Source of the DNA: Owenia fusiformis
Lineage: Eukaryota
Direction: 5' to 3'
DNA: 64,000 bases
NCBI GenBank assembly: GCA_903813345.2
Contig: CAIIXF020000001.1
Coordinates: 22,258,001 to 22,322,000 of the forward strand
Shown here: positions 26,491-61,421 of the stretch, piece after piece
Numbering within the stretch: position 1 is the stretch's first letter
Layout: every line of letters begins with the position of its first letter
The notes under the pieces: model-generated
Database searches by the model: none
What the model was told of the DNA's origin: nothing
The model's input: the letters and a program-made list of their open reading frames with translations, nothing else
Position numbers and translations under genes: made by a program

Positions 26491-28034
26491 TAAACTTTTT
26501 CTGCCCGCCTGTATGTCTTTCGAGAGGAAATATCAATAATCGATTTATCGCTAGATGATAATTCAAATACCACTCAAACTTTTCAAAGGTGGAATTTCGG
26601 TATTGCAACTGTTTTTTAAAATGTCACCAAAATGCTCGTTAACAAGAAAGTCGTTAGTTACACAATGATATAGATGTTGTTAATTTATGAAAAATGTCGA
26701 AGTGTGCAACTGATTGTTTTAAAAAAAATGCAACCCTATTTTTCTTTATATTGACTAGGAGTAAAATATATAATATTAAACGAGTTAGATATCATCTAGT
26801 TGCTTATAAAATTGGCCTAATTCATAAATATTGAATACAATAGAGAAAGTAATATTTTGTACATAGGTTTAGGATGTCAATCTTTAAACTGTTTTCCAAA
26901 GTGGCATTTGAATTCAAAATGCCATTCTGCTTCACAAACTTAAATCATAATTCAACTTTCATCTTGTGATATATTAAAATAAACGTATGTTGTCTTAAGT
27001 TTACAGCTCTCAGGACTGTCTGTAGTAATCACGCCCCTGCAATTATAGACGTCACTGCCCCTGCCTGCCAAAAGAGAGGCATCTCGAAGGAGCTGGATGT
27101 TAACATGGGCAATCTATTGAATGCCAACAATGCCCATGATGTTAGGTAATACATCGTTACACTTCCCTCTAAACTTTAGCAAACATCAGCTCTCTTGTTG
27201 GACCACATATTAAGCCTGTCTATGGGCATGATTAAAAAAAGAGTCATCGACATTTTCAAAACATTCCTGACCTTGTGTAAAGGAAAGAATAGTTACAAAC
27301 ATCCATAGCTTTAACACCAACTCTAGTCTTACAACTAAGGCTCATTGGCAGAGCCAAGGTTACCGCTATCGCAAAGCCCGGGGTTCCAATTCTTGTTTAC
27401 CCCACTACACGTCGCACGAACGGGACAATACGGGCGATATTATATTATGGCGTCAAAATACCAAAACAAAACAATGAGTAGTCCACATCCAGGGTTGTCC
27501 ATTCAGGGTCCATTGAGCAAAATGTGAACATTTAGTGGTGTGTGACAGTGTACTGTGACTTATTTCAAAATTTATCCCAATTTCAACGAACAGTGCGTTA
27601 CATAAATGGTATTTCGATAAACAGTTAAGATCTGCACGTTTAACCCAAACCGTTTATGTAACTTAAATGAGGAATTAAATCGACGATTCTGTTGTCTTCT
27701 GAGCTTTTTTGCAAACATGTACATTTTATAAAACATATGATACTGATATACGTTTGTGAGAAAGAACGTCGTGGAGATTCTGCCTACAACGCGTGAAATA
27801 AGGAAAAAAGAAAAATCGTACCTTCGACGTTCCGACATTTTGCTACCGACACGAACCGTTTCGGTAACCAGCGTAATCGAGGAGCGGATCACCAGTGATA
27901 GTTTAATACATAGACGACAAATTAAACATATGCATAACTACAACATATGTATTCATATTTTTGGAGCTAGCTTTTACAATGATATTGCTATTGACAATTT
28001 TTTTCACCACGTAAAGCTGTATATATCATATTAT

Positions 28035-43521: not shown

Positions 43522-43799
43522 GTGAGTTTTCATATTCGAATCGTAATATAGACCTCAGAGCAGGGGTAATATCGTCGAATACACCCCTTGGGGCTAGGCA
43601 CACAAGCTTTCGAACCCCTCACTCCCTTCGGTCGTTCTGTGAACGTGGGGAAATCACAAAAACTAAGAATATTGTAACAGTTAGGCCTTTTTGTGGATAT
43701 TTTGGTAGTGTGGACTAATAGGCCTCTGTATACCTTGTGGGTTACGTGACACACGTTAAATGTGTTTGCACCAAAGATTCAACAGAACTTTTAATTATA

Positions 43800-43805
43800 T
43801 TTATT
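43800..43805 (-). terminator. Candidate poly(A) signal AATAAA in LTR (also 57121-57126)
   Basis: Minus-strand AATAAA ~130 bp from the LTR end, followed by GU-rich sequence. Confidence 0.6.
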
Positions 43806-43968
43806 ACACAACAAACGATATATTGTGGCGTCTGTAGGCCCAAAATTGTGTACATCAAATAGCAAAATGTCCTTATAATAAACTGGAATAGAACCAATGT
43901 TCGTTGTTGTTGTTATTATTCACTGTAAGTCCAAACATATAAGCATCAATTGTGGGATTGGATTGAAG

Positions 43969-44175
43969 TCACACAAAGTTCACTGTACTCAGGCTGAAGC
44001 CAAGCGATGACTGCAACACTGGAATCTGTCTAGTTGGTATTGGAGCAGACTTATCATTAGATTCTTCGTCTGTAGTGGTAATGCAAACACGAGTGCAAAT
44101 TACAAACATCAAACAAAGGAGTACAAACGATATGCTGCCCACAATCAAAGCGATGAAAAGAACATCCAGTTCCAT
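43969..44175 (-). CDS. LTR-encoded 68-aa single-pass membrane micropeptide (3' LTR copy)
   Basis: ATG-initiated and on the element's sense strand. Hydrophobic run VLFIALIVGSISFVLLCLMFVIC, juxtamembrane CTRVC and a polar tail; lies just upstream of the poly(A) signal. Confidence 0.55.
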   Translation of the reverse strand: MELDVLFIALIVGSISFVLLCLMFVICTRVCITTTDEESNDKSAPIPTRQIPVLQSSLGFSLSTVNFV

Positions 44176-44199
44176 ACAAGGACCAGTATCTTGTCTCGT

Positions 44200-46222
44200 G
44201 CAGGTAGCCTCCTCGTGCTAAGTCTAGTGAATCGTCTTCTCCCTCAAGTAGCCTCCTCCGGCTAAGTCTAGTGGATCCTCTTCTCCCTCAGGTAGCCTGC
44301 TCCGGCTAAGTCCAAAAGATCCTCTTCTCCCTCAGGTAGCCTCCTCCGGCTAAGTCCAATGGATCACCTTCCTCAGGAAGTCCGTTCGACAAAGTCGCTA
44401 AAATAAAGACCCAGCCTCAGTGAGTCCGTTCGACAAAGTCAACTGGAACGTCTTCTCCCTCAGGTAGCCTCTTCAGCTAAGTCCAATGGATCCTCTTCTC
44501 CCTCAGGTAGCCTCTTCAGCTAAGTCCAGTGGATCCTCTTCTCCCTCAGGTAGCCTCTTCAGCTAAGTCCAGTGGATCCTCTTCTCCCTCAGGTAGCCTC
44601 CTCTGGGTAAGTCCAATGGATCACCTTCCTCAGGAAGTCCGTTCGACAAAGTCGCTAAAATAAAGACCCAGCCTCAGTGAGTCCGTTCGACAAAGTCAAC
44701 TGGAACGTCTTCTCCCTCAGGTAGCCTCTTCAGCTAAGTCCAATGGATCCTCTTCTCCCTCAGGTAGCCTCTGGCTAAGTCCAATGGATCCTCTTCTCCC
44801 TCAGGTAGCCTCTGGCTAAGTCCAATGGATCCTCTTCTCCCTCAGGTAGCCTCTTCAGCTAAGTCCAGTGGATCCTCTTCTCCCTCAGGTAGCCTCCTCT
44901 GGGTAAGTCCAATGGATCACCTTCCTCAGGAAGTCCGTTCGACAAAGTCGCTAAAATAAAGACCCAGCCTCAGTGAGTCCGTTCGACAAAGTCAACTGGA
45001 ACGTCTTCTCCCTCAGGTAGCCTCTTCAGCTAAGTCCAATGGATCCTCTTCTCCCTCAGGTAGCCTCTTCAGCTAAGTCCAGTGGATCCTCTTCTCCCTC
45101 AGGTAGCCTCTTCAGCTAAGTCCAGTGGATCCTCTTCTCCCTCAGGTAGCCTCCTCTGGGTAAGTCAAATGGATCACCTTCCTCAGGAAGTCCGTTCGAC
45201 AAAGTCGCTAAAATAAAGACCCAGCCTCAGTGAGTCCGTTCGACAAAGTCAACTGGAACGTCTTCTCCCTCAGGTAGCCTCTTCAGCTAAGTCCAATGGA
45301 TCCTCTTCTCCCTCAGGTAGCCTCTGGCTAAGTCCAATGGATCCTCTTCTCCCTCAGGTAGCCTCTGGCTAAGTCCAATGGATCCTCTTCAGCTAAGTCC
45401 AGTGGATCCTCTTCTCCCTCAGGTAGCCTCCTCTGGGTAAGTCCAATGGATCACCTTCCTCAGGAAGTCCGTTCGACAAAGTCGCTAAAATAAAGACCCA
45501 GCCTCAGTGAGTCCGTTCGACAAAGTCAACTGGAACGTCTTCTCCCTCAGGTAGCCTCTTCAGCTAAGTCCAATGGATCCTCTTCTCCCTCAGGTAGCCT
45601 CTTCAGCTAAGTCCAGTGGATCCTCTTCTCCCTCAGGTAGCCTCTTCAGCTAAGTCCAGTGGATCCTCTTCTCCCTCAGGTAGCCTCCTCTGGGTAAGTC
45701 AAATGGATCACCTTCCTCAGGAAGTCCGTTCGACAAAGTCGCTAAAATAAAGACCCAGCCTCAGTGAGTCCGTTCGACAAAGTCAACTGGAACGTCTTCT
45801 CCCTCAGGTAGCCTCTTCAGCTAAGTCCAGTGGATCCTCTTCTCCCTCAGGTAGCCTCCTCTGGGTAAGTCCAATGGATCACCTTCCTCAGGAAGTCCGT
45901 TCGACAGTCGCTAAAATAAAGACCCAGCCTCAGTGAGTCCGTTCGACAAAGTCAACTGGAACGTCTCCCTCAGGTAGCCTCTTCCGGTGAAGTCCAATGG
46001 ATCCTCTTCTCCCTCAGGTAGCCTCCTCCGGCTAAGTCCAATGGATCCTCTTCTCCCTCAGGTAGCCTCTTCAGCTAAGTCCAGTGGATCCTCTTCTCCC
46101 TCAGATAGGCTCCTCCAGCTAAGTCCAATGGATCACCTTCCTCAGGAAGTCCGTTCGACAGTCGCTGAAATAAAGACCCAGCCTCAGTGAGTCCGTTCGA
46201 CAAAGTCAACTGGAACGTCTTC
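44200..46222. repeat. Hierarchical tandem array 1 in 3' LTR (43-bp units punctuated by 8 copies of a ~90-bp block)
   Basis: 43-bp period at 44488/44531/44574; block starts at 44361, 44618, 44914, 45171, 45448, 45705, 45876, 46130. Confidence 0.95.
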
Positions 46223-46249
46223 AGTGAGGAAGTTTCACAATAAATTATC

Positions 46250-47120
46250 TAAGTCAAACTTCAAATAGAACAAAGTCGAAGAATATTTCAAAGTGTGAGT
46301 AAGAAATATTCTAAGTCCAAGTTAGTATAAACGACTAAAATGTATAAGTCCAACTCCAGGTAGATGTACCACAGAACAAAGTCAAAGAATATTTCGAAGT
46401 GCCAGTAAGAAATGTTCTAAGTCCAAGTTAGCATCCACAGCAAAATATACAAGTCCAACTTCAGGTAGATGTATCACAGAACAAAGTCAAAGAATATTAA
46501 AAATGATTAAAATATTCTAAGTCCAAGTTAGCATCCACAGCAAAATATACAAGTCCAACTTCAGGTAGATGTATCACAGAACAAAGTCAAAGAATATTAA
46601 AAATGATTAAAATATTCTAAGTCCAAGTTATCATCTACAGCAAAATATACAAGTCCAACTCCAGGTAGATGTATCACAGAACAAAGTCAAAGAATATTGA
46701 AAATGATTAAAATATTCTAAGTCCAAGTTAGCATCCACAGCAAAATATACAAGTCCAACTTCAGGTAGATGTATCACAGAACAAAGTCAAAGAATATTGA
46801 AAATGATTAAAATATTCTAAGTCCAAGTTAGCATCCACAGCAAAATGTACAAGTCCAACTTCAGGTAGATGTATCACAGAACAAAGTCAAAGAATATTGA
46901 AAATGATTAAAATATTCTAAGTCCAAGTTATCATCTACAGAAAAATGTACAAGTCCAACTAAATTGACTTTGCCAAAGTTTAACCTCAAGTAGATTCGTC
47001 TACAGCCAGGTACATGTGAACAGAACAAAGTCAAAGAATATTAAAAATTGATTAAAATATTCTAAGTCCAAGTTATCATGTACAGAAAATGTCAAAGTCC
47101 AACAAAGTCAAAGTTGTCAA
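46250..47120. repeat. Tandem array 2 in 3' LTR (100-bp unit, ~8 copies)
   Basis: TTCTAAGTCCAAG at 46415, 46515, 46615, 46715, 46815 and 46915, plus degenerate flanking copies. Confidence 0.95.
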
Positions 47121-47912
47121 AATTTACAAAATATCACGAGCGGAGCTCTGTACCAGTCAAAAGCTAAATCAAGTCTCTCTCGAGTGTCAACTTTCTCAGC
47201 TTATATACTCTAGGAGGTTGCCCGGATGACGTACTCGCGCAATACAAAATATTGGCGCAAACTGATTAACCAAATGTTTAAATTACGATTACGGGCCTAC
47301 AGACGTGAAAATAACTCACAAATATGGTTGGTAATTGCGAGTTAATTATACAGATAAGAAATATAATGATAAAGTGTGGAAATACATTCACAATAGGTGG
47401 CTAGAGCAAGTTATTTAATGGAACAGGAAATAAAATGACCGCCGAAATGGCAGACGAGATTGAATTGACATTTCAAATTCACGACCAAATATCTTGAAAA
47501 CTAAACATTATTGCTACCCCTAATTTACAGAAATGATCGCTAATATTGTTATCTATCTAAATAAATCTAAATTAATAATTCAAATGGACTAACTAACCTG
47601 TATTTTTGCGATAAGTACGGAGCTTGAATATTCGAAGTTGTGGCTTAGTGAAGTAACTCTAAATGAGCACTACTAATGAAACGAAAAATACTACATTGAA
47701 ATAATGAGACAGAAAACGAAACTACCTCACTAAAAATAATGAACGCTAGCCGCCTAATTAAATATTGCAATGGGCCACAAATAAATATAATTATCACCAA
47801 AGGACCAGGTAAAATAAGGGAACAAGTGAAGTTGTTGTATTTAATGGCCATAATCTTGAGACTATCCAAATGGAAAACTATAATAATTTTTCAAAAAAAA
47901 TATTTTGTTACA

Positions 47913-47927
47913 CTCCTCCCTTCTTTT
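47913..47927 (-). other. Polypurine tract
   Basis: Minus-strand AAAAGAAGGGAGGAG directly abuts the 3' LTR. Confidence 0.9.
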
Positions 47928-48783
47928 GTTTTTGGTGTTTTCAACACCAAGCATAATTTCTCTTGAACTAACAATATATTTTTTTAAGAAAAATAAACTG
48001 TATTAAACTATAAAAACTTTCTTATCAAAAATAGTTACATTATAAAAATAACTACATTACATCTTACGAAAATATGTTATTTTGATGGCACTACTACTAA
48101 AGATAATTTTACTTTCTCTCATTGGTTATAACCAGGAGTTTTCTATCTCTAGTTTCAAGTGATTACATGCCTATAAACTACATCTCTAGTTACTTGACTT
48201 ATAATAAACTACCAAAACACAAAGTGTGTCCGGTCATAAACATTTACTATCTCTTGTTTCAAGTAACAGCATGACTTATACACTCAAAACATAAAAAGTT
48301 ATGACATGCAACAAAAATGTACCATCTCAAGTTTCAAATGATTACATGATTCATAAACTAGTCTCTAGCGACATGATTTGTAATAAACTACCAATATACA
48401 AAGTGTGTCATGCAATATACAAAAAATAAATGTCTTCACTCATGCACAACCACATTACAATTTCTAAGTCATCATGTGAACTATCTTATTTTAATGCCAG
48501 AACTACTAAACTGTCTTCATACTCTGTCGTTACCATATGTGAGATAAGTATTACAAAAATAAATTCACCCATCACTAATCACCAGGTACTTAAATTACTC
48601 GCCATAAAATCAAGATATAAGCTCATTGTCATACAAAATAATTGTAAACAGCTCATGTACGAAGCAAAATAATTATCTCTCCATTAAAAACTGATCATCT
48701 TTTCTAAGTCCTAATAACAGTCTCTTATAATATCTGGTTATATTTTCTAAGTCCTCATAATAGTCTCTATCACACTAGAATCT

Positions 48784-50169
48784 TTATATTTTGAGATCGC
48801 TATATCGACTTACCAATGTCTCATCTTCTATCACTGAACCGTCCCTGGCAAAATACCTAAAACGGATCTCCATTTTGATAGGGTTACGGATTGTCCCCCT
48901 TTGGTAGTCCTCATATTCATCGGTTTCCTCATCCTGTAAACGTTGTAACTCCACCCTGGGTTGTTGGTTCAACTTTACATCTTCCTCATCCGAGCTATCT
49001 ACCACATATTTCTTGCTCTTTGGCGCTTTTCGAACTCTTTTGTTATGTGGCTTTGATGACGCCCCCTCAACTACTACTGTCCGACTATCCATTTTTTCAA
49101 CCTCTTCTATTTCACTCTCCACTTTATTGTCCTGACCAGACTTGTCCTTGACTACTCTTTTACCCTGTTTAGAGGTTGTCTTTGCCTTCTCTTCGTAGGT
49201 TTTCTTGATGTCATGATCGGTTGGTTTTACTGTCCCATCGCTGACTCTCTTACTGTCTTTATCTGTGGGTTTCTTTGTGTCATTAGTAGTTTTCTTAATG
49301 TTTTTATCAGTGGTGTTCTTGTCTTTTTCAGTGGTTTTCTTAGGATCAGTGGTTTGCTTTATGTCTTTATCAGTTTTCTTAGTGTCTTTTTCAGTGGTTT
49401 TCTTAGGATCTTTGTCGGTGATTTGCTTTATGTCTTTATCAGTTTTCTTAGTGTCCTTATCGGTTGGTCTCTTCATGTCATCGCTCTTTTCGTTATTGTT
49501 ACTGTCTATCGCTATTTTCTCTGGTGATTTCTCTTTCACGCTTGGTTCTTTCTTACTATCCAATATCTTACCCCACACTGATAAAACTCCCTCTACCCTC
49601 TTGGTTTTGTCAGCAGGTTCTTCCCCGGTTGAAAGGCATGGTACGGGTTTATCAACGGTAGGTGGTACTGACACTGTCATGGGAGAGTTCTTTTCAGGGG
49701 GCGCTCCCAAGCTTGCTGAAGGTGGATAGGTTGTGGTGCAAGGCGTCTGTAAACCTTGCAGTAGTCCTGAAATCTGTCGCATAATTTGTATCCCCTCTGG
49801 ACTTTGCAGACTTGCGACTTGTTCTTCCTGACTAAATGCCTTACTAGAGGACAGGGAGGACCTCTCCCACCTGGCGAATTTATCTACTCTGTTATAGTCC
49901 CTGCTGGAAGCTCCGTCCCTATCATGGTCCCTCTTTTGATCCTGATCTCTATTACGATAGTCTCTTTCTGTTTCTCTATGATCTGTCCCTCTGTCGTTCT
50001 CTCTCCGGTTGGAAGCTCTGCCCCTATCATGGTCCCTACTTTGACCCTGGTCTCTATTGCGATAGTCTCTGTCTGTCTCTCTACTACGGGAGCGATCCCT
50101 TCGGTCTTGGGACCCATATCTGTCATCCCGGCCTCCATAGTCCCTACGCCCGTGTCCTCTGTGAGACAT
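48784..50169 (-). CDS. Putative spliced accessory ORF3 (461 aa, disordered, not Env), in frame with integrase
   Basis: Acceptor CTCTTTTTGTATTTCCAG| (AG 50184-83) lies 13 nt before ATG 50169, right after the integrase-terminal-like RVRKPPKRFADY motif. Confidence 0.55.
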   Translation of the reverse strand: MSHRGHGRRDYGGRDDRYGSQDRRDRSRSRETDRDYRNRDQGQSRDHDRGRASNRRENDRGTDHRETERDYRNRDQDQKRDHDRDGASSRDYNRVDKFARWERSSLSSSKAFSQEEQVASLQSPEGIQIMRQISGLLQGLQTPCTTTYPPSASLGAPPEKNSPMTVSVPPTVDKPVPCLSTGEEPADKTKRVEGVLSVWGKILDSKKEPSVKEKSPEKIAIDSNNNEKSDDMKRPTDKDTKKTDKDIKQITDKDPKKTTEKDTKKTDKDIKQTTDPKKTTEKDKNTTDKNIKKTTNDTKKPTDKDSKRVSDGTVKPTDHDIKKTYEEKAKTTSKQGKRVVKDKSGQDNKVESEIEEVEKMDSRTVVVEGASSKPHNKRVRKAPKSKKYVVDSSDEEDVKLNQQPRVELQRLQDEETDEYEDYQRGTIRNPIKMEIRFRYFARDGSVIEDETLVSRYSDLKI

Positions 50170-53100
50170 TCTTTCTTGGTACCTGGAAATACAAAAAGAG
50201 GTCTCTAAGTCATAGTCCGCAAAGCGTTTTGGGGGTTTACGAACTCGCTTACCAACACAGTTCTTAACTTTATCAGACACATTATTATCTGACTTTGGCT
50301 TATCACACGCAGTAGGCTCCCAAAAATCTGTGTCCATCTGGCCATCAGGATCTTCCTTCTTCGACACTTCCTTGGCTTCAAAGTCCGAAGGTTCAGTATT
50401 CTTCTTGGATGCCCTTTTGTCAGTCGCCTCGTTCTTCAGTTCTTCAGATTTGTAGTCCTCATTCTTCAACTCCGGCTCGGTCTCCTCATTCTTCAGTTCT
50501 TCAGACTTGTAGTCCAATGGATCGGTGTGTATCTCCACCATCTTAGGTTCGGTATCCTCATTCTTCAGTTCTTCAGATTTGTAGTCCTCATTCTTCAACT
50601 CCGGCTCGGTCTCCTCATTCTGCACTTCTTCAGATTTGCAGTCCTCATTCTTCAACTCCGGCTGGTTAGGTTTGAAATCAAATGGGTCTGCTGCTAGCTC
50701 GGACATCTTTGGAATGGTCCCTTCTTGTGGTATAGTCCAACCGTCTGGAAGGCAACTCTCGTAAGGCTTCATCTGATCGAAATGTACCACCCTAGGCTTG
50801 ATCTTTCCCCACTCACGGATACGATACGTCACATCTGACATCTTTTGGAGGACCTGAAATGGACCAATCCATTTACATTGTAATTTAGGAGACACCCCTT
50901 TCTTCTTAGTGTTGTTTTTTAACCACACAGCTTCCCCTATAGTGTATCCCTTCCCTGAAACCCGCCGATCATAAGCATCTCGTTGCCGTTGATTGGCTTT
51001 CTTCAACACTTGGCTGGCGCGCTCATGTGCATCTCTTAAGCCTTGTCTAAGTTCAATCACGTAATCCGTCTTAGTTTCTTCTGATACAGGGTTTTCCACT
51101 ATCCAGGATACTGGCACAGCCAACTCCCTTCCGAACATCATCATTGCTGGTGTCTCCCCTGTCGCCTCGTGAGTGGATGTGCGATAGGCCAGCAATGCAT
51201 AAGGAATCTTTACATCCCAGTCGTATTGATGAACATCAGGCTGTAACAGTTTAGCAATAGTATCCAATAGAGTCCGATTGTACCTCTCCACCATCCCGTT
51301 GCTCTGCGGATGGAAGGGTGTAGTACGGGTCTTGTGAATCCCCATCAATTCACAGATTTCTTGAAATACATGAGACTCAAAATTTCTGCCTTGATCTGAG
51401 TGCAGTTCTGCTGGGGCTCCAAATCTGCAAACAACCTCGTTTACCAACTTATCAGCTACAGTTGTGGCTTCTTGATTAGGGAGAGGGTAGGCTTCAACCC
51501 ACTTCGAGAAGTAGTTGGCACACACCATTATCACCTTATTCCCTCTTGGTGTCTCGGGGAATGGTCCCAAAATATCCACAGCATAACGCTCCATAGGAGA
51601 ACTAACTCCTTGGACCTGCATGGGAGCTCTTCTAGCCTTCAAGGGTTTTCTTCTGGTTCCACAGGTGTGGCAAGAGCGCACAACTCCTCTAACATCGACT
51701 CTCTGCTCAAACCAATAGAATCTCTGTCGGCTCTTCAGGAAGGTGCGACGGACACCAAAATGTCCGGCAACCTTGTTAGAGTGGCTCATCTCTAGAACAA
51801 TCGCCTTCATTGGAGATGGAACTAGTATCTGTAGATGACCATGCTCCCCACTGGCATCCTCCCATCTGTTGCAAAGTACATTGTTGTTGATCTCAAGTTG
51901 ATTCCAAAGGTGCCAATAATGCTTTGTAGCGGGCGAATTGTAACTGATCTTATCCCAAGTTGGTCTGATTGAAGAAGTTCGCAGAGCCTCTAATATAGGC
52001 TGTATCTCAGGATCTTGTCCTTGTGCCTCCGCAATTTTCTCCAAAGTCCAAGTTGGTTCAACAGAGACCACAGAGATTGCTACCTGAAGCACATCTTCCT
52101 GTTCCACCTCATCACAATGTGAACACTGGTGACAGGGCCGTCTGGACATAACATCAGCGTTCGCATGTTTTGGTCCTGGGCGATATTCCAGTTGGTAGTT
52201 ATACTCCTGTAGTACCTCCAGCCATCGAGCTAGTTGTCCCTCTGGATTCCTGAAGTTAGTTAACCACCTCAATGATCCATGGTCTGAACGAATGGTAAAT
52301 CTGACCCCATACAAGTATTGGCGAAAATACTTGACAAAAAATACCACAGCTAAAAGTTCCTTGCGAGTCACGCAGTAATTCAACTCTGGTCCATTCAACC
52401 GATGACTTGCATAGTATATCACCCGCTCTTCATTGTCTTGAATCTGGGATAACACAGCACCCAAAGCTTCATGACTGGCATCCGTGTCTAAAATATAGGG
52501 ACAATCATCTCTGGGAAAAGATAAGATAGGTGCTGTAGTTAACATCTCCTTCAAAGCAACAAAGGCCTCCTCTGCTTCAGGATTCCACATAAATCTCTGA
52601 TTCTTTCGTGTCAACTTGTGTAAAGGACCGGCTATTTCGGCAAAGTTTTTGATATGCCTTCTGTAGTAAGAAGCCCCTCCTACAAATTGTCGGACATGTT
52701 TTACTGTCCTTGGAGTAGGGTACTGCACCATAGCTGCTATCTTCTCCGGGTCTGGTGCAATGCCATCACCAGAAACAACATGGCCGAGGAAGTTCACTTT
52801 AGTCTGGAACAGGGTACACTTGCTAGGTTTCATCTTCAATCCAGCTCGGCGAAGACAACCAAATACCCTTTCTAAGCGACCAATCGCTTGTTCAAACGTG
52901 GGGGCGAATGAAATCACATCGTCCAAATAAACCAGAGAACCATCATCTTTCAAACCACTAAGAACTTCTTCCATCAGGCGACAAAATGTCGAAGGTGCAT
53001 TCGATAAGCCAAATGGCATCACAGTCCATTGGTAAAGTCCACCTCTTACTGTGAACGCTGACTTCTCTTGAGCGTCTTTATCCAATAAGACCTGCCAATA

Positions 53101-53352
53101 CCCACTTGCAAGATCCAGTGTGCTGAAATACTTCGATCCATTCAGCATATCCAAGGTTTCATCGATTCTAGGAATTGGGAAAGCGTCTTTCTTCGTAACA
53201 CTATTAAGTTTTCGGTAATCGACGCAGAATCTCCATGAGCCGTCTTTCTTTCTTACAAGTACTATGGGTGACGCCCACGGACTCTGGGAGGGCTCGATTA
53301 TACCTCGCTTCATCATGTCTTCAATAAGATCAGTCACAGTATCCTGACGACT
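48784..53352 (-). CDS. pol: Pol: RT, RNase H, integrase (GPY/F) and long low-complexity extension; in frame with gag-PR across one TGA
   Basis: SPWASP, RFCVDYRKLN, MPFGL, YLDD, DTDAS, HANAD, H-H-C-C zinc finger, VDILGP/HSDQG/NGMVER, WIGPF. Confidence 0.95.
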   Translation of the reverse strand, partial: SRQDTVTDLIEDMMKRGIIEPSQSPWASPIVLVRKKDGSWRFCVDYRKLNSVTKKDAFPIPRIDETLDMLNGSKYFSTLDLASGYWQVLLDKDAQEKSAFTVRGGLYQWTVMPFGLSNAPSTFCRLMEEVLSGLKDDGSLVYLDDVISFAPTFEQAIGRLERVFGCLRRAGLKMKPSKCTLFQTKVNFLGHVVSGDGIAPDPEKIAAMVQYPTPRTVKHVRQFVGGASYYRRHIKNFAEIAGPLHKLTRKNQRFMWNPEAEEAFVALKEMLTTAPILSFPRDDCPYILDTDASHEALGAVLSQIQDNEERVIYYASHRLNGPELNYCVTRKELLAVVFFVKYFRQYLYGVRFTIRSDHGSLRWLTNFRNPEGQLARWLEVLQEYNYQLEYRPGPKHANADVMSRRPCHQCSHCDEVEQEDVLQVAISVVSVEPTWTLEKIAEAQGQDPEIQPILEALRTSSIRPTWDKISYNSPATKHYWHLWNQLEINNNVLCNRWEDASGEHGHLQILVPSPMKAIVLEMSHSNKVAGHFGVRRTFLKSRQRFYWFEQRVDVRGVVRSCHTCGTRRKPLKARRAPMQVQGVSSPMERYAVDILGPFPETPRGNKVIMVCANYFSKWVEAYPLPNQEATTVADKLVNEVVCRFGAPAELHSDQGRNFESHVFQEICELMGIHKTRTTPFHPQSNGMVERYNRTLLDTIAKLLQPDVHQYDWDVKIPYALLAYRTSTHEATGETPAMMMFGRELAVPVSWIVENPVSEETKTDYVIELRQGLRDAHERASQVLKKANQRQRDAYDRRVSGKGYTIGEAVWLKNNTKKKGVSPKLQCKWIGPFQVLQKMSDVTYRIREWGKIKPRVVHFDQMKPYESCLPDGWTIPQEGTIPKMSELAADPFDFKPNQPELKNEDCKSEEVQNEETEPELKNEDYKSEELKNEDTEPKMVEIHTDPLDYKSEELKNEETEPELKNEDYKSEELKNEATDKRASKKNTEPSDFEAKEVSKKEDPDGQMDTDFWEPTACDKPKSDNNVSDKVKNCVGKRVRKPPKRFADYDLETSFCISRYQERMSHRGHGRRDYGGRDDRYGSQDRRDRSRSRETDRDYRNRDQGQSRDHDRGRASNRRENDRGTDHRETERDYRNRDQDQKRDHDRDGASSRDYNRVDKFARWERSSLSSSKAFSQEEQVASLQSPEGIQIMRQISGLLQGLQTPCTTTYPPSASLGAPPEKNSPMTVSVPPTVDKPVPCLSTGEEPADKTKRVEGVLSVWGKILDSKKEPSVKEKSPEKIAIDSNNNEKSDDMKRPTDKDTKKTDKDIKQITDKDPKKTTEKDTKKTDKDIKQTTDPKKTTEKDKNTTDKNIKKTTNDTKKPTDKDSKRVSDGTVKPTDHDIKKTYEEKAKTTSKQGKRVVKDKSGQDNKVESEIEEVEKMDSRTVVVEGASSKPHNKRVRKAPKSKKYVVDSSDEEDVKLNQQPRVELQRLQDEETDEYEDYQRGTIRNPIKMEIRFRYFARDGSVIEDETLVSRYSDLKI

Positions 53353-56300
53353 TCAGGGTAACATGCGATATCTTTGCTTTATTGGTGGAGTATTCCCGGT
53401 GTCTATGCTGTGCTCTACTAGAGTTGTCTTACCCAAGTCACCATCTCTTTGGGCAAAAATATCTTGATTCCTCACAAGTAGTGATTGAAGTTGATCACTC
53501 TGATTCTGTGTAAGTCCACATGAACTTCTTTCAAATAAGGCCTGCATAAAATCTGGCAATGGTATAAGTCCTTCTTCAGCTCCCTCTGAAGTTGAAAGTG
53601 GGCAAACGACCTCTTGTTTAACTTTTTCCAAATTCACATGGTAGGTCTCATCATCCACCAAAGTGAAGACTCCCAAAGTTTCTCCTTGGAGGACGGATAC
53701 TTCGAAGTCGTTATTGTTCCGCACTTCTATATAGCTGACCTGATTAGCATCAGCTAATATGGTTACCACTTCAAGTTCATCCATCTGGGTATCAGATAAG
53801 TGGGGTTCAATAATGCCCACCCCCACTAGTGGTTCCCTCAACCGAACCTCGATACATCTACCAGAGTAAGGAGGTATGACCACTTCATCCTCAGAGCAGT
53901 TGTAACAAAATGTAGATTGTTGTTGAGCACACATCTGTCTCAAATCGGGAAATACATCATCTTCCAAGTCCAAACTCTCTTGAGACCCATGTGGCGTTTC
54001 TGGAATAACGATAGGTTCCGCTGGGGGACTGTCAGGAAACTGTACCTCTGGTTCAGGCGACGGAGTTTCAGGTACAAATAGTTCCCAGGCATCCTCAAAA
54101 ACTTGAGAATCTTCTGATTCCTCTGTGTCTTCCTCGACTACAGACAGGGGACTATCAGGAATTTCTATCTTGACTCTAGGTGAAGGTGTCTCAGGTCTAG
54201 GTTCTACCATTCTCTTCACTTGTGTTGAACTTGGTCCAGCTTCAGCTGATTCTTTTAAACTCTTTGTAGTCCTGGGCTTGGATCCAACAACCTCCAATGC
54301 TGAGCCGCTACTACTACTTTCATTTCTTGATAACTTAGTACTGCAGCTACAGAAGTGATCAGATTCGTCTGACTCAGGTCCCTCAGGATCATCAAGTTGA
54401 TCTTCTGCTGCACCAGAGTTATCTTGTGCCCCAAAACTAAGTCGACAGCGATGGTAATCTACTATAGCTCCAGATGCGGACAAATAGTCGCTTCCCAAAA
54501 TTCCATCAAAGTCTATGTTGGCTACAGCAATCTCCATCTCTTCGGTATGTCCATCTATATTAACAGTACCAAGGATAACTCCCATCATGGCCAGTGGTTC
54601 CCCATCTGCTTGGACCATAACATGGTTTGGAGGTAACAACTTTGGGCGATATCGAGGGTTCATCCTACGATAAACTTCACCACTCACAATGGTACGCACT
54701 GCTCCAGAATCTAACAAAAAGATCACATCAGTGCCACAGACATCGCCATGAGCTATAACCTTCCGAACATCCTTAGGGGATTTGTTCTTGGTAACATCTC
54801 TCCCTGAATGAGACAGGAATTTCACCGGGGCAGTCTGATTCGATCCAGCTTGGGCCTCTCTGGCTCTCTCTTCATTTCGTTTCCTCGAATAACAGTCGGC
54901 CATCACGTGTCCTGATTTGTGACAGTAGAAACACTCAACTTTTCTATTTCGGTTTCCTCTCGATTCGAACCCAGGCTTCTTTTGTTGTTCCAATAACTCC
55001 ACCATTTTCTCTAAGTTCTTGCTGCATTCCACTTGTACGCTTTTCTGGATATTCTCTATCAGTTGGGTAATCTGCTTGAACTCACTCTCTTTTTCTTCCA
55101 ACGCACTTATTCTACCGTATTTTGGCTTTTGTCCTTTTCTAATCCGTTCAGACTCTAAGTAGGACTCTTCCTTCAGAGCGATTTCTATTGCCTTATCCAG
55201 AGTGGTACATTCTTTTGCGTGGATTGCTCTGCGTATGTCCTCTTCTACTATAGCTTGTTCAAAGCTGCGTCTGGCAAGGCGGTCTTGAGATGATCTGCTC
55301 ATTTCAGGGTAGGCCAATGCCGTAAGCCGTCGGATGTCTTGACCCAAGGTTTGAAGTGATTCTTTGGGCTTCCTCATTCGACCAACAAGTTCCGCCTCGT
55401 AGATTTCTGCTTTGCCACCAGGCCCGAACCTCTTCTCCAAGGCCAGGATCAACTGCTCATAGGTGTATCCCTCTTCCAACTCTAACACAATCTGCTGTGC
55501 TGGACCTCGCAGACTTGTGGCCAGGTACTGGTTCTTCTCCTCCGAAGTCCATCTATTGGCTTTACAGCAAATCTCGAAGTAAGCGCGATACTCTTGCCAT
55601 GGAGTTGTACCATTAAAAGTGTCAGGCTTAATTCGGCTCTTGGATTTGGGCCTGTCATCTTGGGACAACTTATCACAGAAGTTGTTGAACATCTTGAGGA
55701 AATCTGTAGAAACACCAGGTATATTAGTATCATCTTTCGAAATCTTCGGTTCAGGGGAATCAAAACCCGAGAATTTATTATCTTCTTCAAATCTAGTTCT
55801 TATATCAGAATATGGTGCCGTATGATCACTGCTTCTAGGTGGATGTCCATCCCTTTCTCTTTGGCTCTTAAACTCGTTAGCGTCCCAGCCTCCAGGAAGA
55901 TACACTTCATCAGGTTTATTAAACAGTATAGTGGGATCTCTGTGGTCTGTTTGGTGTTTAGTTGGCACATAGACTCTGTCTTGTCTTTGTAAAGACCATG
56001 GTCGCTTCCTTTGAGGAGGAAAGGACTCTGGAATATCCTCATCTTCTAAATCTTGTTTTTGACTCATTGGCATCGTAGGTGATTTGAACGGTTGCCTCTG
56101 AGATTTTCCTGCAGAATCTGGCCTAGGGTTCTCATCAAACTCTGAAGGACAACCAACATCTTCGTAGTTTCGTGACCTCGAAACGACTTCTTGCTGAACT
56201 GGAGGAATGGTCAAAGTAGAGTGCAACTTGTCAATAGACTCACCAATAGTCTTCTGGAAAGATTCCATGTAATGTTGCATCTCTTGTAAGCGGCGATCTT

Positions 56301-56931
56301 GTATTCCCGCAATCTCTTGTAGTCGCCTCTCATGCTTTTGCTCACTGCCTTGTTGAATATTCTTGGTCTCCGCAAGGTGTTCCACTATTTGGGACATGCT
56401 ACTGGTCTGTATCTGCTGAGTTGTTGTTATGGCATTCAACTGTTTCTGTTGTGTATCCGCAATGTCACCTAACACAGACATCTTCCCTTTGAGCTGTCCC
56501 TCAATCATAGTTAGTTCTTGTCTAATCTCTTCGGCTGCTTGAACTTTGTCTGAGGGCCGATTAATGATAGTTGATGTCAATGGGAAACGTGGTCTTGGGG
56601 GAGGATTCCTTCTATCTCGAATCATGGGATGTGCCGGAGTTCCCATATTATCTAAGTCTCCTCCTGTCCAGTAGCCTGTACTTTGTATGCCAGGAAAAAT
56701 GCTCATTTCAGAATCCACCTTCGAATCTTTAGCTCTGGCGCCTACACCAAGTTGATCCTCTGGTTGATCAGACAATGGTTCTCCATCTTGTTGCACAGGT
56801 AAAGTTTCATCTTCAGCTCCAGGATTTTCCACTTCAGCTGACTCTGGTTTCAGGAACACTGTCTTCTCCATGTCAGACTCGTCTCCATCTCTTGGATAAG
56901 GAAGACCTGCCTCTAGTTCCATCTTGTCCAT
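53353..56931 (-). CDS. gag: Gag-protease polyprotein (1192 aa)
   Basis: Capsid KPDTFNGTTPWQEY...W...LATSLRGPA, knuckle CFYCHKSGHVMADC, protease FLLDSGA...GILGSDYL, then an acidic linker and a possibly dUTPase-like degenerate segment. Confidence 0.95.
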   Translation of the reverse strand: MDKMELEAGLPYPRDGDESDMEKTVFLKPESAEVENPGAEDETLPVQQDGEPLSDQPEDQLGVGARAKDSKVDSEMSIFPGIQSTGYWTGGDLDNMGTPAHPMIRDRRNPPPRPRFPLTSTIINRPSDKVQAAEEIRQELTMIEGQLKGKMSVLGDIADTQQKQLNAITTTQQIQTSSMSQIVEHLAETKNIQQGSEQKHERRLQEIAGIQDRRLQEMQHYMESFQKTIGESIDKLHSTLTIPPVQQEVVSRSRNYEDVGCPSEFDENPRPDSAGKSQRQPFKSPTMPMSQKQDLEDEDIPESFPPQRKRPWSLQRQDRVYVPTKHQTDHRDPTILFNKPDEVYLPGGWDANEFKSQRERDGHPPRSSDHTAPYSDIRTRFEEDNKFSGFDSPEPKISKDDTNIPGVSTDFLKMFNNFCDKLSQDDRPKSKSRIKPDTFNGTTPWQEYRAYFEICCKANRWTSEEKNQYLATSLRGPAQQIVLELEEGYTYEQLILALEKRFGPGGKAEIYEAELVGRMRKPKESLQTLGQDIRRLTALAYPEMSRSSQDRLARRSFEQAIVEEDIRRAIHAKECTTLDKAIEIALKEESYLESERIRKGQKPKYGRISALEEKESEFKQITQLIENIQKSVQVECSKNLEKMVELLEQQKKPGFESRGNRNRKVECFYCHKSGHVMADCYSRKRNEERAREAQAGSNQTAPVKFLSHSGRDVTKNKSPKDVRKVIAHGDVCGTDVIFLLDSGAVRTIVSGEVYRRMNPRYRPKLLPPNHVMVQADGEPLAMMGVILGTVNIDGHTEEMEIAVANIDFDGILGSDYLSASGAIVDYHRCRLSFGAQDNSGAAEDQLDDPEGPESDESDHFCSCSTKLSRNESSSSGSALEVVGSKPRTTKSLKESAEAGPSSTQVKRMVEPRPETPSPRVKIEIPDSPLSVVEEDTEESEDSQVFEDAWELFVPETPSPEPEVQFPDSPPAEPIVIPETPHGSQESLDLEDDVFPDLRQMCAQQQSTFCYNCSEDEVVIPPYSGRCIEVRLREPLVGVGIIEPHLSDTQMDELEVVTILADANQVSYIEVRNNNDFEVSVLQGETLGVFTLVDDETYHVNLEKVKQEVVCPLSTSEGAEEGLIPLPDFMQALFERSSCGLTQNQSDQLQSLLVRNQDIFAQRDGDLGKTTLVEHSIDTGNTPPIKQRYRMLP

Positions 56932-56973
56932 CTTGTAAGTTCTCTAGTTCTGGCTCGTCTTTGGAAACAATTC

Positions 56974-56992
56974 AATCCCACCGCTGCCACCA
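56974..56992 (-). other. Primer-binding site, tRNA-Leu
   Basis: Plus-strand AATCCCACCGCTGCCACCA matches the 3' end (with CCA) of animal tRNA-Leu AAG/TAG as I recall it; 1 nt from the 5' LTR. Confidence 0.85.
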
Positions 56993-57289
56993 GTGTAACA
57001 GTTAGGCCTTTTTGTGGATATTTTGGTAGTGTGGACTAATAGGCCTCTGTATACCTTGTGGGTTACGTGACACACGTTAAATGTGTTTGCACCAAAGATT
57101 CAACAGAACTTTTAATTATATTTATTACACAACAAACGATATATTGTGGCGTCTGTAGGCCCAAAATTGTGTACATCAAATAGCAAAATGTCCTTATAAT
57201 AAACTGGAATAGAACCAATGTTCGTTGTTGTTGTTATTATTCACTGTAAGTCCAAACATATAAGCATCAATTGTGGGATTGGATTGAAG

Positions 57290-57496
57290 TCACACAAAGT
57301 TCACTGTACTCAGGCTGAAGCCAAGCGATGACTGCAACACTGGAATCTGTCTAGTTGGTATTGGAGCAGACTTATCATTAGATTCTTCGTCTGTAGTGGT
57401 AATGCAAACACGAGTGCAAATTACAAACATCAAACAAAGGAGTACAAACGATATGCTGCCCACAATCAAAGCGATGAAAAGAACATCCAGTTCCAT
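57290..57496 (-). CDS. LTR-encoded 68-aa membrane micropeptide (5' LTR copy)
   Basis: Translation identical to 43969-44175. Confidence 0.55.
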   Translation of the reverse strand: MELDVLFIALIVGSISFVLLCLMFVICTRVCITTTDEESNDKSAPIPTRQIPVLQSSLGFSLSTVNFV

Positions 57497-60400
57497 ACAA
57501 GGACCAGTATCTTGTCTCGTGCAGGTAGCCTCCTCGTGCTAAGTCTAGTGAATCGTCTTCTCCCTCAAGTAGCCTCCTCCGGCTAAGTCTAGTGGATCCT
57601 CTTCTCCCTCAGGTAGCCTGCTCCGGCTAAGTCCAAAAGATCCTCTTCTCCCTCAGGTAGCCTCCTCCGGCTAAGTCCAATGGATCACCTTCCTCAGGAA
57701 GTCCGTTCGACAAAGTCGCTAAAATAAAGACCCAGCCTCAGTGAGTCCGTTCGACAAAGTCAACTGGAACGTCTTCTCCCTCAGGTAGCCTCTTCAGCTA
57801 AGTCCAATGGATCCTCTTCTCCCTCAGGTAGCCTCTTCAGCTAAGTCCAGTGGATCCTCTTCTCCCTCAGGTAGCCTCTTCAGCTAAGTCCAGTGGATCC
57901 TCTTCTCCCTCAGGTAGCCTCCTCTGGGTAAGTCCAATGGATCACCTTCCTCAGGAAGTCCGTTCGACAAAGTCGCTAAAATAAAGACCCAGCCTCAGTG
58001 AGTCCGTTCGACAAAGTCAACTGGAACGTCTTCTCCCTCAGGTAGCCTTTTCAGCTAAGTCCAATGGATCCTCTTCTCCCTCAGGTAGCCTCTGGCTAAG
58101 TCCAATGGATCCTCTTCTCCCTCAGGTAGCCTCTGGCTAAGTCCAATGGATCCTCTTCTCCCTCAGGTAGCCTCTTCAGCTAAGTCCAGTGGATCCTCTT
58201 CTCCCTCAGGTAGCCTCCTCTGGGTAAGTCCAATGGATCACCTTCCTCAGGAAGTCCGTTCGACAAAGTCGCTAAAATAAAGACCCAGCCTCAGTGAGTC
58301 CGTTCGACAAAGTCAACTGGAACGTCTTCTCCCTCAGGTAGCCTCTTCAGCTAAGTCCAATGGATCCTCTTCTCCCTCAGGTAGCCTCTTCAGCTAAGTC
58401 CAGTGGATCCTCTTCTCCCTCAGGTAGCCTCTTCAGCTAAGTCCAGTGGATCCTCTTCTCCCTCAGGTAGCCTCCTCTGGGTAAGTCAAATGGATCACCT
58501 TCCTCAGGAAGTCCGTTCGACAAAGTCGCTAAAATAAAGACCCAGCCTCAGTGAGTCCGTTCGACAAAGTCAACTGGAACGTCTTCTCCCTCAGGTAGCC
58601 TCTTCAGCTAAGTCCAATGGATCCTCTTCTCCCTCAGGTAGCCTCTGGCTAAGTCCAATGGATCCTCTTCTCCCTCAGGTAGCCTCTGGCTAAGTCCAAT
58701 GGATCCTCTTCAGCTAAGTCCAGTGGATCCTCTTCTCCCTCAGGTAGCCTCCTCTGGGTAAGTCCAATGGATCACCTTCCTCAGGAAGTCCGTTCGACAA
58801 AGTCGCTAAAATAAAGACCCAGCCTCAGTGAGTCCGTTCGACAAAGTCAACTGGAACGTCTTCTCCCTCAGGTAGCCTCTTCAGCTAAGTCCAATGGATC
58901 CTCTTCTCCCTCAGGTAGCCTCTTCAGCTAAGTCCAGTGGATCCTCTTCTCCCTCAGGTAGCCTCTTCAGCTAAGTCCAGTGGATCCTCTTCTCCCTCAG
59001 GTAGCCTCCTCTGGGTAAGTCAAATGGATCACCTTCCTCAGGAAGTCCGTTCGACAAAGTCGCTAAAATAAAGACCCAGCCTCAGTGAGTCCGTTCGACA
59101 AAGTCAACTGGAACGTCTTCTCCCTCAGGTAGCCTCTTCAGCTAAGTCCAGTGGATCCTCTTCTCCCTCAGGTAGCCTCCTCTGGGTAAGTCCAATGGAT
59201 CACCTTCCTCAGGAAGTCCGTTCGACAGTCGCTAAAATAAAGACCCAGCCTCAGTGAGTCCGTTCGACAAAGTCAACTGGAACGTCTCCCTCAGGTAGCC
59301 TCTTCCGGTGAAGTCCAATGGATCCTCTTCTCCCTCAGGTAGCCTCCTCCGGCTAAGTCCAATGGATCCTCTTCTCCCTCAGGTAGCCTCTTCAGCTAAG
59401 TCCAGTGGATCCTCTTCTCCCTCAGATAGGCTCCTCCAGCTAAGTCCAATGGATCACCTTCCTCAGGAAGTCCGTTCGACAGTCGCTGAAATAAAGACCC
59501 AGCCTCAGTGAGTCCGTTCGACAAAGTCAACTGGAACGTCTTCAGTGAGGAAGTTTCACAATAAATTATCTAAGTCAAACTTCAAATAGAACAAAGTCGA
59601 AGAATATTTCAAAGTGTGAGTAAGAAATATTCTAAGTCCAAGTTAGTATAAACGACTAAAATGTATAAGTCCAACTCCAGGTAGATGTACCACAGAACAA
59701 AGTCAAAGAATATTTCGAAGTGCCAGTAAGAAATGTTCTAAGTCCAAGTTAGCATCCACAGCAAAATATACAAGTCCAACTTCAGGTAGATGTATCACAG
59801 AACAAAGTCAAAGAATATTAAAAATGATTAAAATATTCTAAGTCCAAGTTAGCATCCACAGCAAAATATACAAGTCCAACTTCAGGTAGATGTATCACAG
59901 AACAAAGTCAAAGAATATTAAAAATGATTAAAATATTCTAAGTCCAAGTTATCATCTACAGCAAAATATACAAGTCCAACTCCAGGTAGATGTATCACAG
60001 AACAAAGTCAAAGAATATTGAAAATGATTAAAATATTCTAAGTCCAAGTTAGCATCCACAGCAAAATATACAAGTCCAACTTCAGGTAGATGTATCACAG
60101 AACAAAGTCAAAGAATATTGAAAATGATTAAAATATTCTAAGTCCAAGTTAGCATCCACAGCAAAATGTACAAGTCCAACTTCAGGTAGATGTATCACAG
60201 AACAAAGTCAAAGAATATTGAAAATGATTAAAATATTCTAAGTCCAAGTTATCATCTACAGAAAAATGTACAAGTCCAACTAAATTGACTTTGCCAAAGT
60301 TTAACCTCAAGTAGATTCGTCTACAGCCAGGTACATGTGAACAGAACAAAGTCAAAGAATATTAAAAATTGATTAAAATATTCTAAGTCCAAGTTATCAT

Positions 60401-60521
60401 GTACAGAAAATGTCAAAGTCCAACAAAGTCAAAGTTGTCAAAATTTACAAAATATCACGAGCGGAGCTCTGTACCAGTCAAAAGCTAAATCAAGTCTCTC
60501 TCGAGTGTCAACTTTCTCAGC

Positions 60522-60576
60522 TTATATACTCTAGGAGGTTGCCCGGATGACGTACTCGCGCAATACAAAATATTGG
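60522..60576 (-). promoter_or_regulatory. Candidate LTR core promoter: TATATAA with upstream CRE-like TGACGTA and CCAAT (also 47201-47255)
   Basis: Minus-strand GTATATAAG ~700 bp into the LTR, just upstream of array 2. Confidence 0.6.
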
Positions 60577-61421
60577 CGCAAACTGATTAACCAAATGTTT
60601 AAATTACGATTACGGGCCTACAGACGTGAAAATAACTCACAAATATGGTTGGTAATTGCGAGTTAATTATACAGATAAGAAATATAATGATAAAGTGTGG
60701 AAATACATTCACAATAGGTGGCTAGAGCAAGTTATTTAATGGAACAGGAAATAAAATGACCGCCGAAATGGCAGACGAGATTGAATTGACATTTCAAATT
60801 CACGACCAAATATCTTGAAAACTAAACATTATTGCTACCCCTAATTTACAGAAATGATCGCTAATATTGTTATCTATCTAAATAAATCTAAATTAATAAT
60901 TCAAATGGACTAACTAACCTGTATTTTTGCGATAAGTACGGAGCTTGAATATTCGAAGTTGTGGCTTAGTGAAGTAACTCTAAATGAGCACTACTAATGA
61001 AACGAAAAATACTACATTGAAATAATGAGACAGAAAACGAAACTACCTCACTAAAAATAATGAACGCTAGCCACCTAATTAAATATTGCAATGGGCCACA
61101 AATAAATATAATTATCACCAAAGGACCAGGTAAAATAAGGGAACAAGTGAAGTTGTTGTATTTAATGGCCATAATCTTGAGACTATCCAAATGGAAAACT
61201 ATAATAATTTTTCAAAAAAAATATTTTGTTACAATATGTATCGGCTTTAAATGTTTTTATTCTCCAACGTCACACAGGACTAAAAACACTCCTGAAACAC
61301 AGGAATACAAGATTTGTTTAACATCGAATGCCTTTTTATAGCAAACATTCAAAAATTGTAATCTTAATTCCCACTCTGATTCTGTAGATTACTGTAGGTC
61401 AAACTCATGTTTATACAATTA

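Follow-up and report, generated by a model that had tools for sequence, protein, structure and literature searches.

The closest described counterpart of the gene that we report here, ORF3 of a Ty3/gypsy retrotransposon of the annelid Owenia fusiformis, is CERV of the Caenorhabditis elegans element Cer1. CERV is an open reading frame (ORF) at the env position, lying in the polyprotein frame and expressed by splicing, whose nuclear product is required for export of the genomic RNA; no homologues of it outside nematodes are reported there (PMC10309623). HIV-1 Rev, which favours unspliced RNA, carries a UHM ligand motif (ULM), that is, a basic-tryptophan-acidic motif that binds splicing factors with UHM domains (PMC6511859). 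Extra ORFs between integrase and the 3' long terminal repeat (LTR), the place of ORF3, are described in plant, rotifer and fungal elements as well (PMC8220671, PMC5408684, PMC9289625). As far as the accessible text goes, these are env-like, enzymes or antisense, and none is a hidden acceptor and ATG inside a Gag-Pol frame (PMC8220671). The Env of errantiviruses, annelid ones included (PMC13524379), shares the position of ORF3, but ORF3 has no signal peptide, membrane anchor or fusion-protein fold. Our locus lies within 64,000 nt of O. fusiformis contig CAIIXF020000001.1 (positions 22,258,001 to 22,322,000), hereafter the window. Coordinates refer to the window, and the element with all its features lies on the minus strand.

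Judged from its relatives, ORF3 (48784-50169, 461 aa) is an accessory gene of an annelid Ty3/gypsy clade: it is selected, stands behind a splice acceptor and an ATG conserved at the DNA level, and is kept in the Pol frame. It is a real and apparently undescribed gene. The literature searched, which excludes subscription journals, Repbase, Dfam and supplements, holds no account of ORF3, of retrotransposon ULMs or of these elements, and the terms ORF, Owenia and splic do not occur in PMC8556966. An original prediction, made from the letters of the window, had placed here a 461-aa ORF in the integrase frame, opening 13 nt past an acceptor, and our coordinates reproduce it. Its proposal of an undescribed accessory protein behind its own acceptor is borne out as regards the gene, the acceptor, the start and three public models; the RNA-binding role that it added is suggested by composition. 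Because ORF3 ends in a conserved domain predicted to be a beta-hairpin, we refer to the loci that share this domain as the hairpin clade.

The integrase of the window element reaches KRVRKPPKRFADY (50212-50250), a motif where related integrases end. We took 120 Pol homologues from outside, the nearest being 40-49% identical and mostly unnamed, and alignment to the integrase end was possible for 118. In these the tail has a median length of 82 residues, and one tail exceeds 400. A strict terminal R..R..P..DY pattern occurs in nine homologues, all nine of which end at most 6 residues from it, and many others end in a looser form (by eye); none contains the C-terminal domain of ORF3 (best E 2.4). 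Thus, ORF3 begins where integrases end. A conserved candidate acceptor, consisting of a pyrimidine tract and CAG in Pol phase 2, lies 29 nt past the motif (50183-50200). Since CTCTTTTTGTATTTCCAG ends at 50183, the first exon base would be 50182, and the ATG at 50169 is Met1062 of a 1522-codon frame for reverse transcriptase (RT), RNase H and integrase (IN) that stops at 48784. Upstream of this junction, the integrase tail carries an acidic repeat of its own, EELKNEE/D, with a period of 57 nt (50420-50701).

A genome search with the last 68 residues of ORF3 gave 25 places, of which 18 were fetched and 12 scanned for acceptors (that of L039 was read by eye from its DNA). Nine of the 12 bear an integrase. 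Each of these carries the acceptor, followed at 1-13 nt by an ATG, so that the conservation in relatives on which the original prediction had let its claim depend is present; the remaining three are fragments without an ORF3 start. In a wider set of 20 more distant loci, chosen from 138 integrase-search matches, five have an acceptor and an ATG 10-16 nt behind the motif, in phase 1 instead of phase 2. The encoded peptide therefore differs, and the signal is kept as DNA: it is of the same TGT..TTT(C/G)CAG type in the sister clade as in the hairpin clade, whereas conserved gag motifs vary at third positions. The acceptor also resembles two host U2AF65 acceptors. By chance, an acceptor-like site with an in-frame ATG at most 14 nt away occurs 0.027 times per 35 nt (12 in 15,562 nt of RT-IN from six families), and pyrimidine-rich AG sites alone 0.18 times per 35 nt of pol. 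Because the loci are related, these occurrences are not independent events; yet acceptor and ATG stand at the matching place in families whose synonymous sites are saturated between them.

A single reading frame runs from gag to 48784, interrupted in the window copy alone by a TGA at 53353-53355. Owing to this codon, the integrase-ORF3 fusion that had been predicted cannot be translated from the gag start in the window copy; it does stand in three other copies, which are 98-99% identical around the acceptor, have an identical acceptor and ATG, and keep one open frame of 2679, 2722 and 2717 codons. Among fused loci the spacer from motif end to ATG takes nine lengths (12, 18, 21, 24, 30, 36, 39, 42 and 45 nt, three of them counted by hand). 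Of 13 such loci, 12 have their first post-acceptor ATG in frame with Pol; the exception, L072, has its second ATG there. The acceptor stands in different phases in different clades, so the kept frame cannot come from an invariable coding exon upstream; read-through of Pol can account for it. We consider it likely that the chief source of ORF3 is a subgenomic RNA made by splicing, with a first exon that either does not code or is not bound to the frame, and fairly likely that ORF3 is also made as a tail of Gag-Pol, with that form under selection too.

The Pol frame is thus kept in most families, and a stop between integrase and ATG, which the original prediction had proposed to look for, is found in L040 and L051. 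In these, ORF3 is a separate gene starting TTTTTGTGTGCTTTCAG/GATG (TTTCAG/GATG, the slash marking the candidate splice point). Three of the 20 distant loci likewise have a separate ORF, with an acceptor at the ATG in L083 and L085 and no evident one in L084. A further three, L078-L080, are of the fused form; in L078 and L079 an acceptor-like site was seen, without an ATG close to it. In an integrase tree the six fused hairpin loci form one group (99/96), the separate form is their sister (90/86), and the order of the two forms is left undecided. Other material was seen at the same place. In one family (L068, L069 and L076) the integrase tail extends into a stretch rich in RS/RD, where neither an acceptor nor a Met is present, before it ends in a stop. 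A second aspartyl-protease-like domain, carrying FLIDTG (LVDSG in L083) and additional to the normal protease, follows the integrase tail in frame in L040 (sense 5700-6100), L051, L066, L067 and L083.

We turn to the protein itself, which keeps only islands across families: the RD/RS start, the Trp motif, the helix-like segment, a WG motif and the last 33 residues. Residues 1-95 (49885-50169) form an R/D/S-rich mixed-charge block with 27 R and 19 D, and the first 120 residues hold 30 RS, RD or RE dipeptides. The conserved island DKFARWER, a candidate ULM-like motif, occupies residues 96-103 (49861-49884). Residues 113-141 (49747-49833) look by eye like an amphipathic helix, seen in fused families, which might, speculatively, be an export signal or a dimer element. 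A K/T/D repeat block covers residues 201-345 (49135-49569), with a unit of about 63 nt repeated 3.2 times (49248-49455) and whole-codon indels of 15 and 23 codons between copies. Residues 377-387 (49009-49041), KRVRKAPKSKK, follow what we take to be the pattern of a nuclear localization signal (NLS). The one conserved folded part, residues 429-461 (48787-48885), is predicted by AlphaFold2 to be a two-strand beta-hairpin, with a predicted local distance difference test (pLDDT) of 92-94 in the strands; the whole protein has one Cys.

Most of what had been read from the sequence of ORF3 was located again: the RD/RS/G-rich block (RDRSRSRETDRDYRNRD) begins at residue 24, the NLS-like stretch at residue 377, and the compact C-terminus corresponds to the hairpin. 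The KKTTDKD repeats exist as the K/T/D block and not as that literal string. The claimed absence of a signal peptide or transmembrane segment agrees with a best 19-residue Kyte-Doolittle mean of 0.37 in the window ORF3, where no hydrophobic segment was found, and with 0 of 14 ORF3s scanned for either feature (best mean 1.22). A Pfam scan of ORF3 gave no match up to E 1, and hence no RRM, so that the combination of RRM and RS region expected of SR proteins is absent. Nothing significant matched the hairpin in the PDB by sequence or by Foldseek, a word search with the whole ORF3 gave 0 of 7999 candidates, and a search of the Atlas with ORF3 gave no usable match. The Atlas model of a relative is disordered (pLDDT 0.38). 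The composition of ORF3 fits that of a disordered protein associated with RNA in the nucleus.

Between copies, dN/dS is 0.18-0.25 for ORF3 versus 0.14-0.17 for RT-IN, and indels are of whole codons. These substitution patterns indicate that ORF3 is a protein under purifying selection, with dN/dS about 0.2. A profile of the hairpin found 12 matches in 1.84 billion proteins. Four cover the full domain, all of them O. fusiformis models, and the other eight are partial and driven by repeats; at full-domain length, the conserved hairpin is therefore seen in O. fusiformis proteins only. Three public models (P0005, P0007 and P0008) start precisely at the Met behind the acceptor, two of them despite in-frame Mets upstream. 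Such starts fit transcript-based models, and repeat masking could yield the same starts. Sister families have C2H2 fingers where the hairpin stands; Pfam gave a finger-type match in 5 of 5 scanned, 2 of them above the curated cut-off. Such fingers were seen in the ORF3s of L072, L073, L074, L077, L078-L080, L083 and L085, several of which have an RS-rich start. A C-terminal TQT motif, presumably an LC8-binding pattern, is frequent in these finger-bearing ORF3s.

What might such a protein do? The window sequence KFARWE has the basic-Trp-acidic pattern of a UHM ligand (PMC6511859), as a match of sequence. The separate ORF3 of L040 starts METKKRKSRWD. In the PDB its first 25 residues match a single sequence, which is the ULM region of SF3B1 and has KRKSRWD in identical form. 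Five of 7 hairpin ORF3s contain the pattern [RK]W[DE], against 0 of 7 others, and the roughly 26 Trp in the seven hairpin ORF3s would give about one by composition (an estimate). The best Atlas feature match of P0005 is SRRM2-like (0.77), which we treat as a lead only. We give slightly less than an even chance to the favoured reading, namely that ORF3 is a spliced nuclear accessory protein controlling the splicing or export of the element's own RNA, convergent with Cer1 CERV and HIV Rev. Free ORF3 would enter the nucleus by its NLS, gather on the nascent RNA of the element through the RD/RS block and a self-associating hairpin, and engage through its Trp motif the UHM-domain 3' splice-site factors U2AF65, SPF45, PUF60 and RBM39. 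That engagement would damp the acceptor of ORF3 itself, so that unspliced genomic RNA leaves the nucleus, a feedback resembling that of HIV Rev or Cer1 CERV. A fuller version strikes us as doubtful: that the acceptor and ATG at the integrase end form a slot of this clade with swapped C2H2 or hairpin cargo, that the window cargo is a splicing-factor mimic (RS and ULM) governing its own acceptor and entering the particle within Gag-Pol, and that a Rev-type regulator was thus invented independently by ULM mimicry.

Several observations weigh against the favoured reading. With an E of 1.2 the SF3B1 match lacks significance; the five motifs come from about three lineages, so that together with the composition estimate the Trp motif counts as a lead; KFARWE is an imperfect ULM with two basic residues only; and the motif is absent from two fused families. 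A predicted complex of the host U2AF65 UHM with the motif segment (score 0.19, mark 0.34) decides neither way. We aligned three RNA runs and one contig run, of which 6-12% each was read, listing a joint from three reads upwards. Over 10.6 kb, the RNA runs contributed 86, 73 and 72 reads, most of them oriented as sense RNA would be in a typical stranded library. At this depth of about 1x a joint at 50182 was not listed, a test of low power given so few reads, and no step in depth was seen (mean sense depth 0.97 in ORF3 versus 0.77 in pol). One contig of X1, which may be DNA, spans the acceptor unspliced, and no spliced retrocopy was found, all 4 DNA matches crossing the acceptor. Donor scans, made with a human-type matrix, gave no donor of at least 5 bits in the window element and none common to more than 3 of 6 families. 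Nor was an RNA target element identified; Rfam has no match in 43600-57100.

Among the candidates rejected, a 168-nt skip (57292-57461) lacks canonical ends and resembles a variant of the LTR, and the gag motif STGYWTG was ruled out as a donor since its third positions vary. No conserved gag donor of the kind that would provide a gag-shared exon, as in CERV, was found among the families scanned. Trans-splicing of a spliced leader was set aside because it is reported absent from annelids (PMC7854359); the accessible text of PMC12460157 has nothing bearing on it. The RNA runs share loose read ends at 56972 and 57013. These suggest that another element is transcribed, one whose LTR end and primer-binding site are similar but whose leader is different.

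A further point against the favoured reading is that 9 of the 20 wider relatives lack ORF3, including two long-ORF copies of the L040 lineage. In L066 and L067 it is cleanly absent between the Pol stop and the polypurine tract, with frames of 2803 and 2806 codons kept, so that ORF3 is dispensable in cis. This fits a trans-acting helper, and it fits optional cargo as well; if ORF3 acts in trans, as we propose, relatives without it can persist.

How, then, does ORF3 compare with the described systems? Like CERV, it is a non-envelope ORF at the env position of a gypsy element with no stop between gag and pol, in the polyprotein frame, with an acceptor and a candidate NLS (PMC10309623). CERV has, as shown there, a nuclear protein needed for export of unspliced RNA, and it differs from ORF3 in joining gag-shared exons and in having three folded domains, H, a M ring and a G-protein-like one (PMC10309623). 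ORF3, in turn, has its own ATG behind the acceptor, is mostly disordered, and carries the RD/RS block, the ULM-like motif and a single hairpin. Lacking H, M and G domains, the cysteine loop and gag-shared exons, it falls outside the CERV family proper. HIV-1 Rev (PMC6511859) may be likened to ORF3 as a basic, oligomer-forming product of spliced RNA with a ULM, and it differs in its defined intronic Rev response element (RRE) and proven export signal; there is no homology. ORF3 also shares a basic-Trp-acidic motif beside RS-type low complexity with the ULMs of SF3B1, SF1 and U2AF65 and with SR-related proteins, but it has no RRM, is encoded by a retrotransposon, and in the window has an imperfect motif. 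ORF3 is CERV-like in layout, perhaps Rev-like in mechanism, and a member of neither family.

The original prediction had also made ORF3 a partner of the tandem arrays in the LTRs, with Rev/RRE-like logic. In the window element these are a 100-nt array (59588-60281, copy 46267-46960) and a 43/257-nt array (57554-59540, copy 44233-46219). The LTRs of the hairpin clade are 2.6-5.5 kb long in 6 of 6 families and carry arrays behind a TATA-like box, with units unrelated between families. Because they lie between the TATA box and AATAAA, the arrays would be in spliced and unspliced RNA alike, outside the putative intron and unlike the RRE, if transcription uses both signals. They are present in L066-L070, L075 and L076, which lack ORF3, and were not found in the fetched stretches of L078-L080, which bear it. 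The array partnership is therefore unsupported; of the Rev-like logic, the CERV precedent and the ULM-like motif remain, and the arrays as counterpart of the RRE do not. Foamy-virus Tas offers a model for a related reading, in which ORF3 would bind the arrays, as DNA or RNA, to activate transcription or to counter silencing. The giant array-filled LTRs of all six hairpin-clade families and the C2H2 fingers of sister ORF3s speak for it, but the window ORF3 has no nucleic-acid-binding fold, the hairpin is conserved while the array units are unrelated, and arrays and ORF3 are distributed as just described; we regard this reading as quite improbable. Within the arrays, the 43-nt unit reads CCTCTTCTCCCTCAG/GTAG on the plus strand, an overlapped acceptor and donor. 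CAGGT occurs 36 times antisense and 0 times sense per LTR, and the 43-nt and 100-nt units have CTACCTG and TTGGACTTAG in common. The LTRs of the L040/L051 family (L062/L063 and L064/L065) hold 58-70 copies of a 28-nt unit that forms a row of sense acceptor-like sites (TTTGTAG, TTTCAG); the family also has an acceptor-like site ahead of the gag ATG and two more ahead of the ORF3 acceptor.

ORF3 might instead be mainly an extension or partner of integrase, a basic tether rich in repeats by which the pre-integration complex would reach the nucleus or chromatin, with splicing adding free copies. Its place is the one taken by the chromodomain in chromoviruses; nearly all fused loci keep the Pol frame despite the many spacer lengths and both acceptor phases; ORF3 has the NLS-like stretch and a K/T-rich block; and at this place sister families have C2H2 fingers and L082, a distant locus, has a chromodomain-like tail (by eye). 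No Pfam chromodomain match lies behind the integrase in P0002. A dedicated acceptor and ATG kept even in fused loci, the separate gene of L040/L051, L083 and L085, and an RS block and Trp motif pointing to RNA processing all make a tether unlikely as the main role. That ORF3 is made from its own RNA only, with the Pol frame kept for another reason such as avoiding decay triggered by a long 3' untranslated region (UTR), or with the acceptor serving an internal promoter, would accord with the lack of a conserved upstream donor, with the more than 4 kb of 3' UTR that would come after Pol even in the fused form, and with the existence of separate forms. Nevertheless, a stop after Pol is tolerated in the separate-ORF families, and no internal promoter was seen (no search for one was made); we hold this decidedly unlikely. 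Were the acceptor an unused by-product of a conserved peptide, and ORF3 a low-complexity tail of Pol, the missing junction and the frequency of pyrimidine-rich AG sites in pol would follow. Yet the motif persists where its phase is shifted and where it lies in non-coding DNA, and an ATG always comes behind it, which renders this very improbable. An envelope or fusogen, finally, is suggested by the position after pol and the acceptor, but it is contradicted by the missing signal peptide and membrane segment in all ORF3s scanned and by the disordered Atlas model, and is scarcely credible.

The remaining features bear out the assignment of the young 17,561-nt element (43673-61233) as an LTR retrotransposon. 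It ends TG..CA between 4-nt ATAT duplications, a primer-binding site and polypurine tract were found, and Pfam matches run protease, RT, RNase H, integrase, which is the gypsy order. The 5' LTR (56994-61233, 4240 nt) differs from the 3' LTR (43673-47912) by 2 mismatches. A candidate promoter, TATATAA, lies at LTR position 706 (60522-60528), with TATA-like boxes of relatives at LTR positions 621-695, and AATAAA close to the LTR end (43800-43805, second copy 57121-57126) is a candidate poly(A) signal. The primer-binding site TGGTGGCAGCGGTGGGAT (56975-56992), common to 7 of 7 elements examined, is presumably a match to tRNA-Leu; a tRNA scan gave nothing. Gag, with one CCHC knuckle, and the aspartyl protease share a frame of 1196 codons that ends at the premature TGA (53353-56943), followed in the same frame by RT, RNase H and an integrase with an SH3-like end (50761-53352). 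The polypurine tract GAAGGGAGGAG (47913-47923) lies 871 nt past the ORF3 stop. The disordered N-terminus of gag (55950-56870, minus strand) keeps KTVF, STGYWTG, PLTST and PWxLxRQ across families, with third positions free. Target duplications in the window (43669-43672 and 61234-61237) and in L037, L038, L040 and L051 are 4 nt long and all end in AT (ATAT, CTAT, GTAT, ATAT and CCAT), a hint of sequence-preferring integration. Elsewhere in the window, nested inverted repeats at 5002-12223 (5002-5687 versus 8739-9651 and 12044-12223) flank a 780-codon minus-strand ORF (9727-12069), probably a DNA transposon, and there are unrelated tandem repeats of 590 nt (23361-25145) and 360 nt (25490-26492).

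The means by which simple LTR elements overcome host retention and export their unspliced RNA are understood in few cases, and CERV is the sole dedicated gypsy export protein that turned up in the literature searched. If the favoured reading of ORF3 is true, a young clade of several families would hold a second, unrelated solution, and Rev-type regulators would be seen to arise more than once beyond the retroviruses. Because fused, separate and ORF3-less forms occur naturally, as do two types of cargo, the question can be tested. Long 'integrase tails' of animal gypsy elements, moreover, can conceal separately expressed genes.

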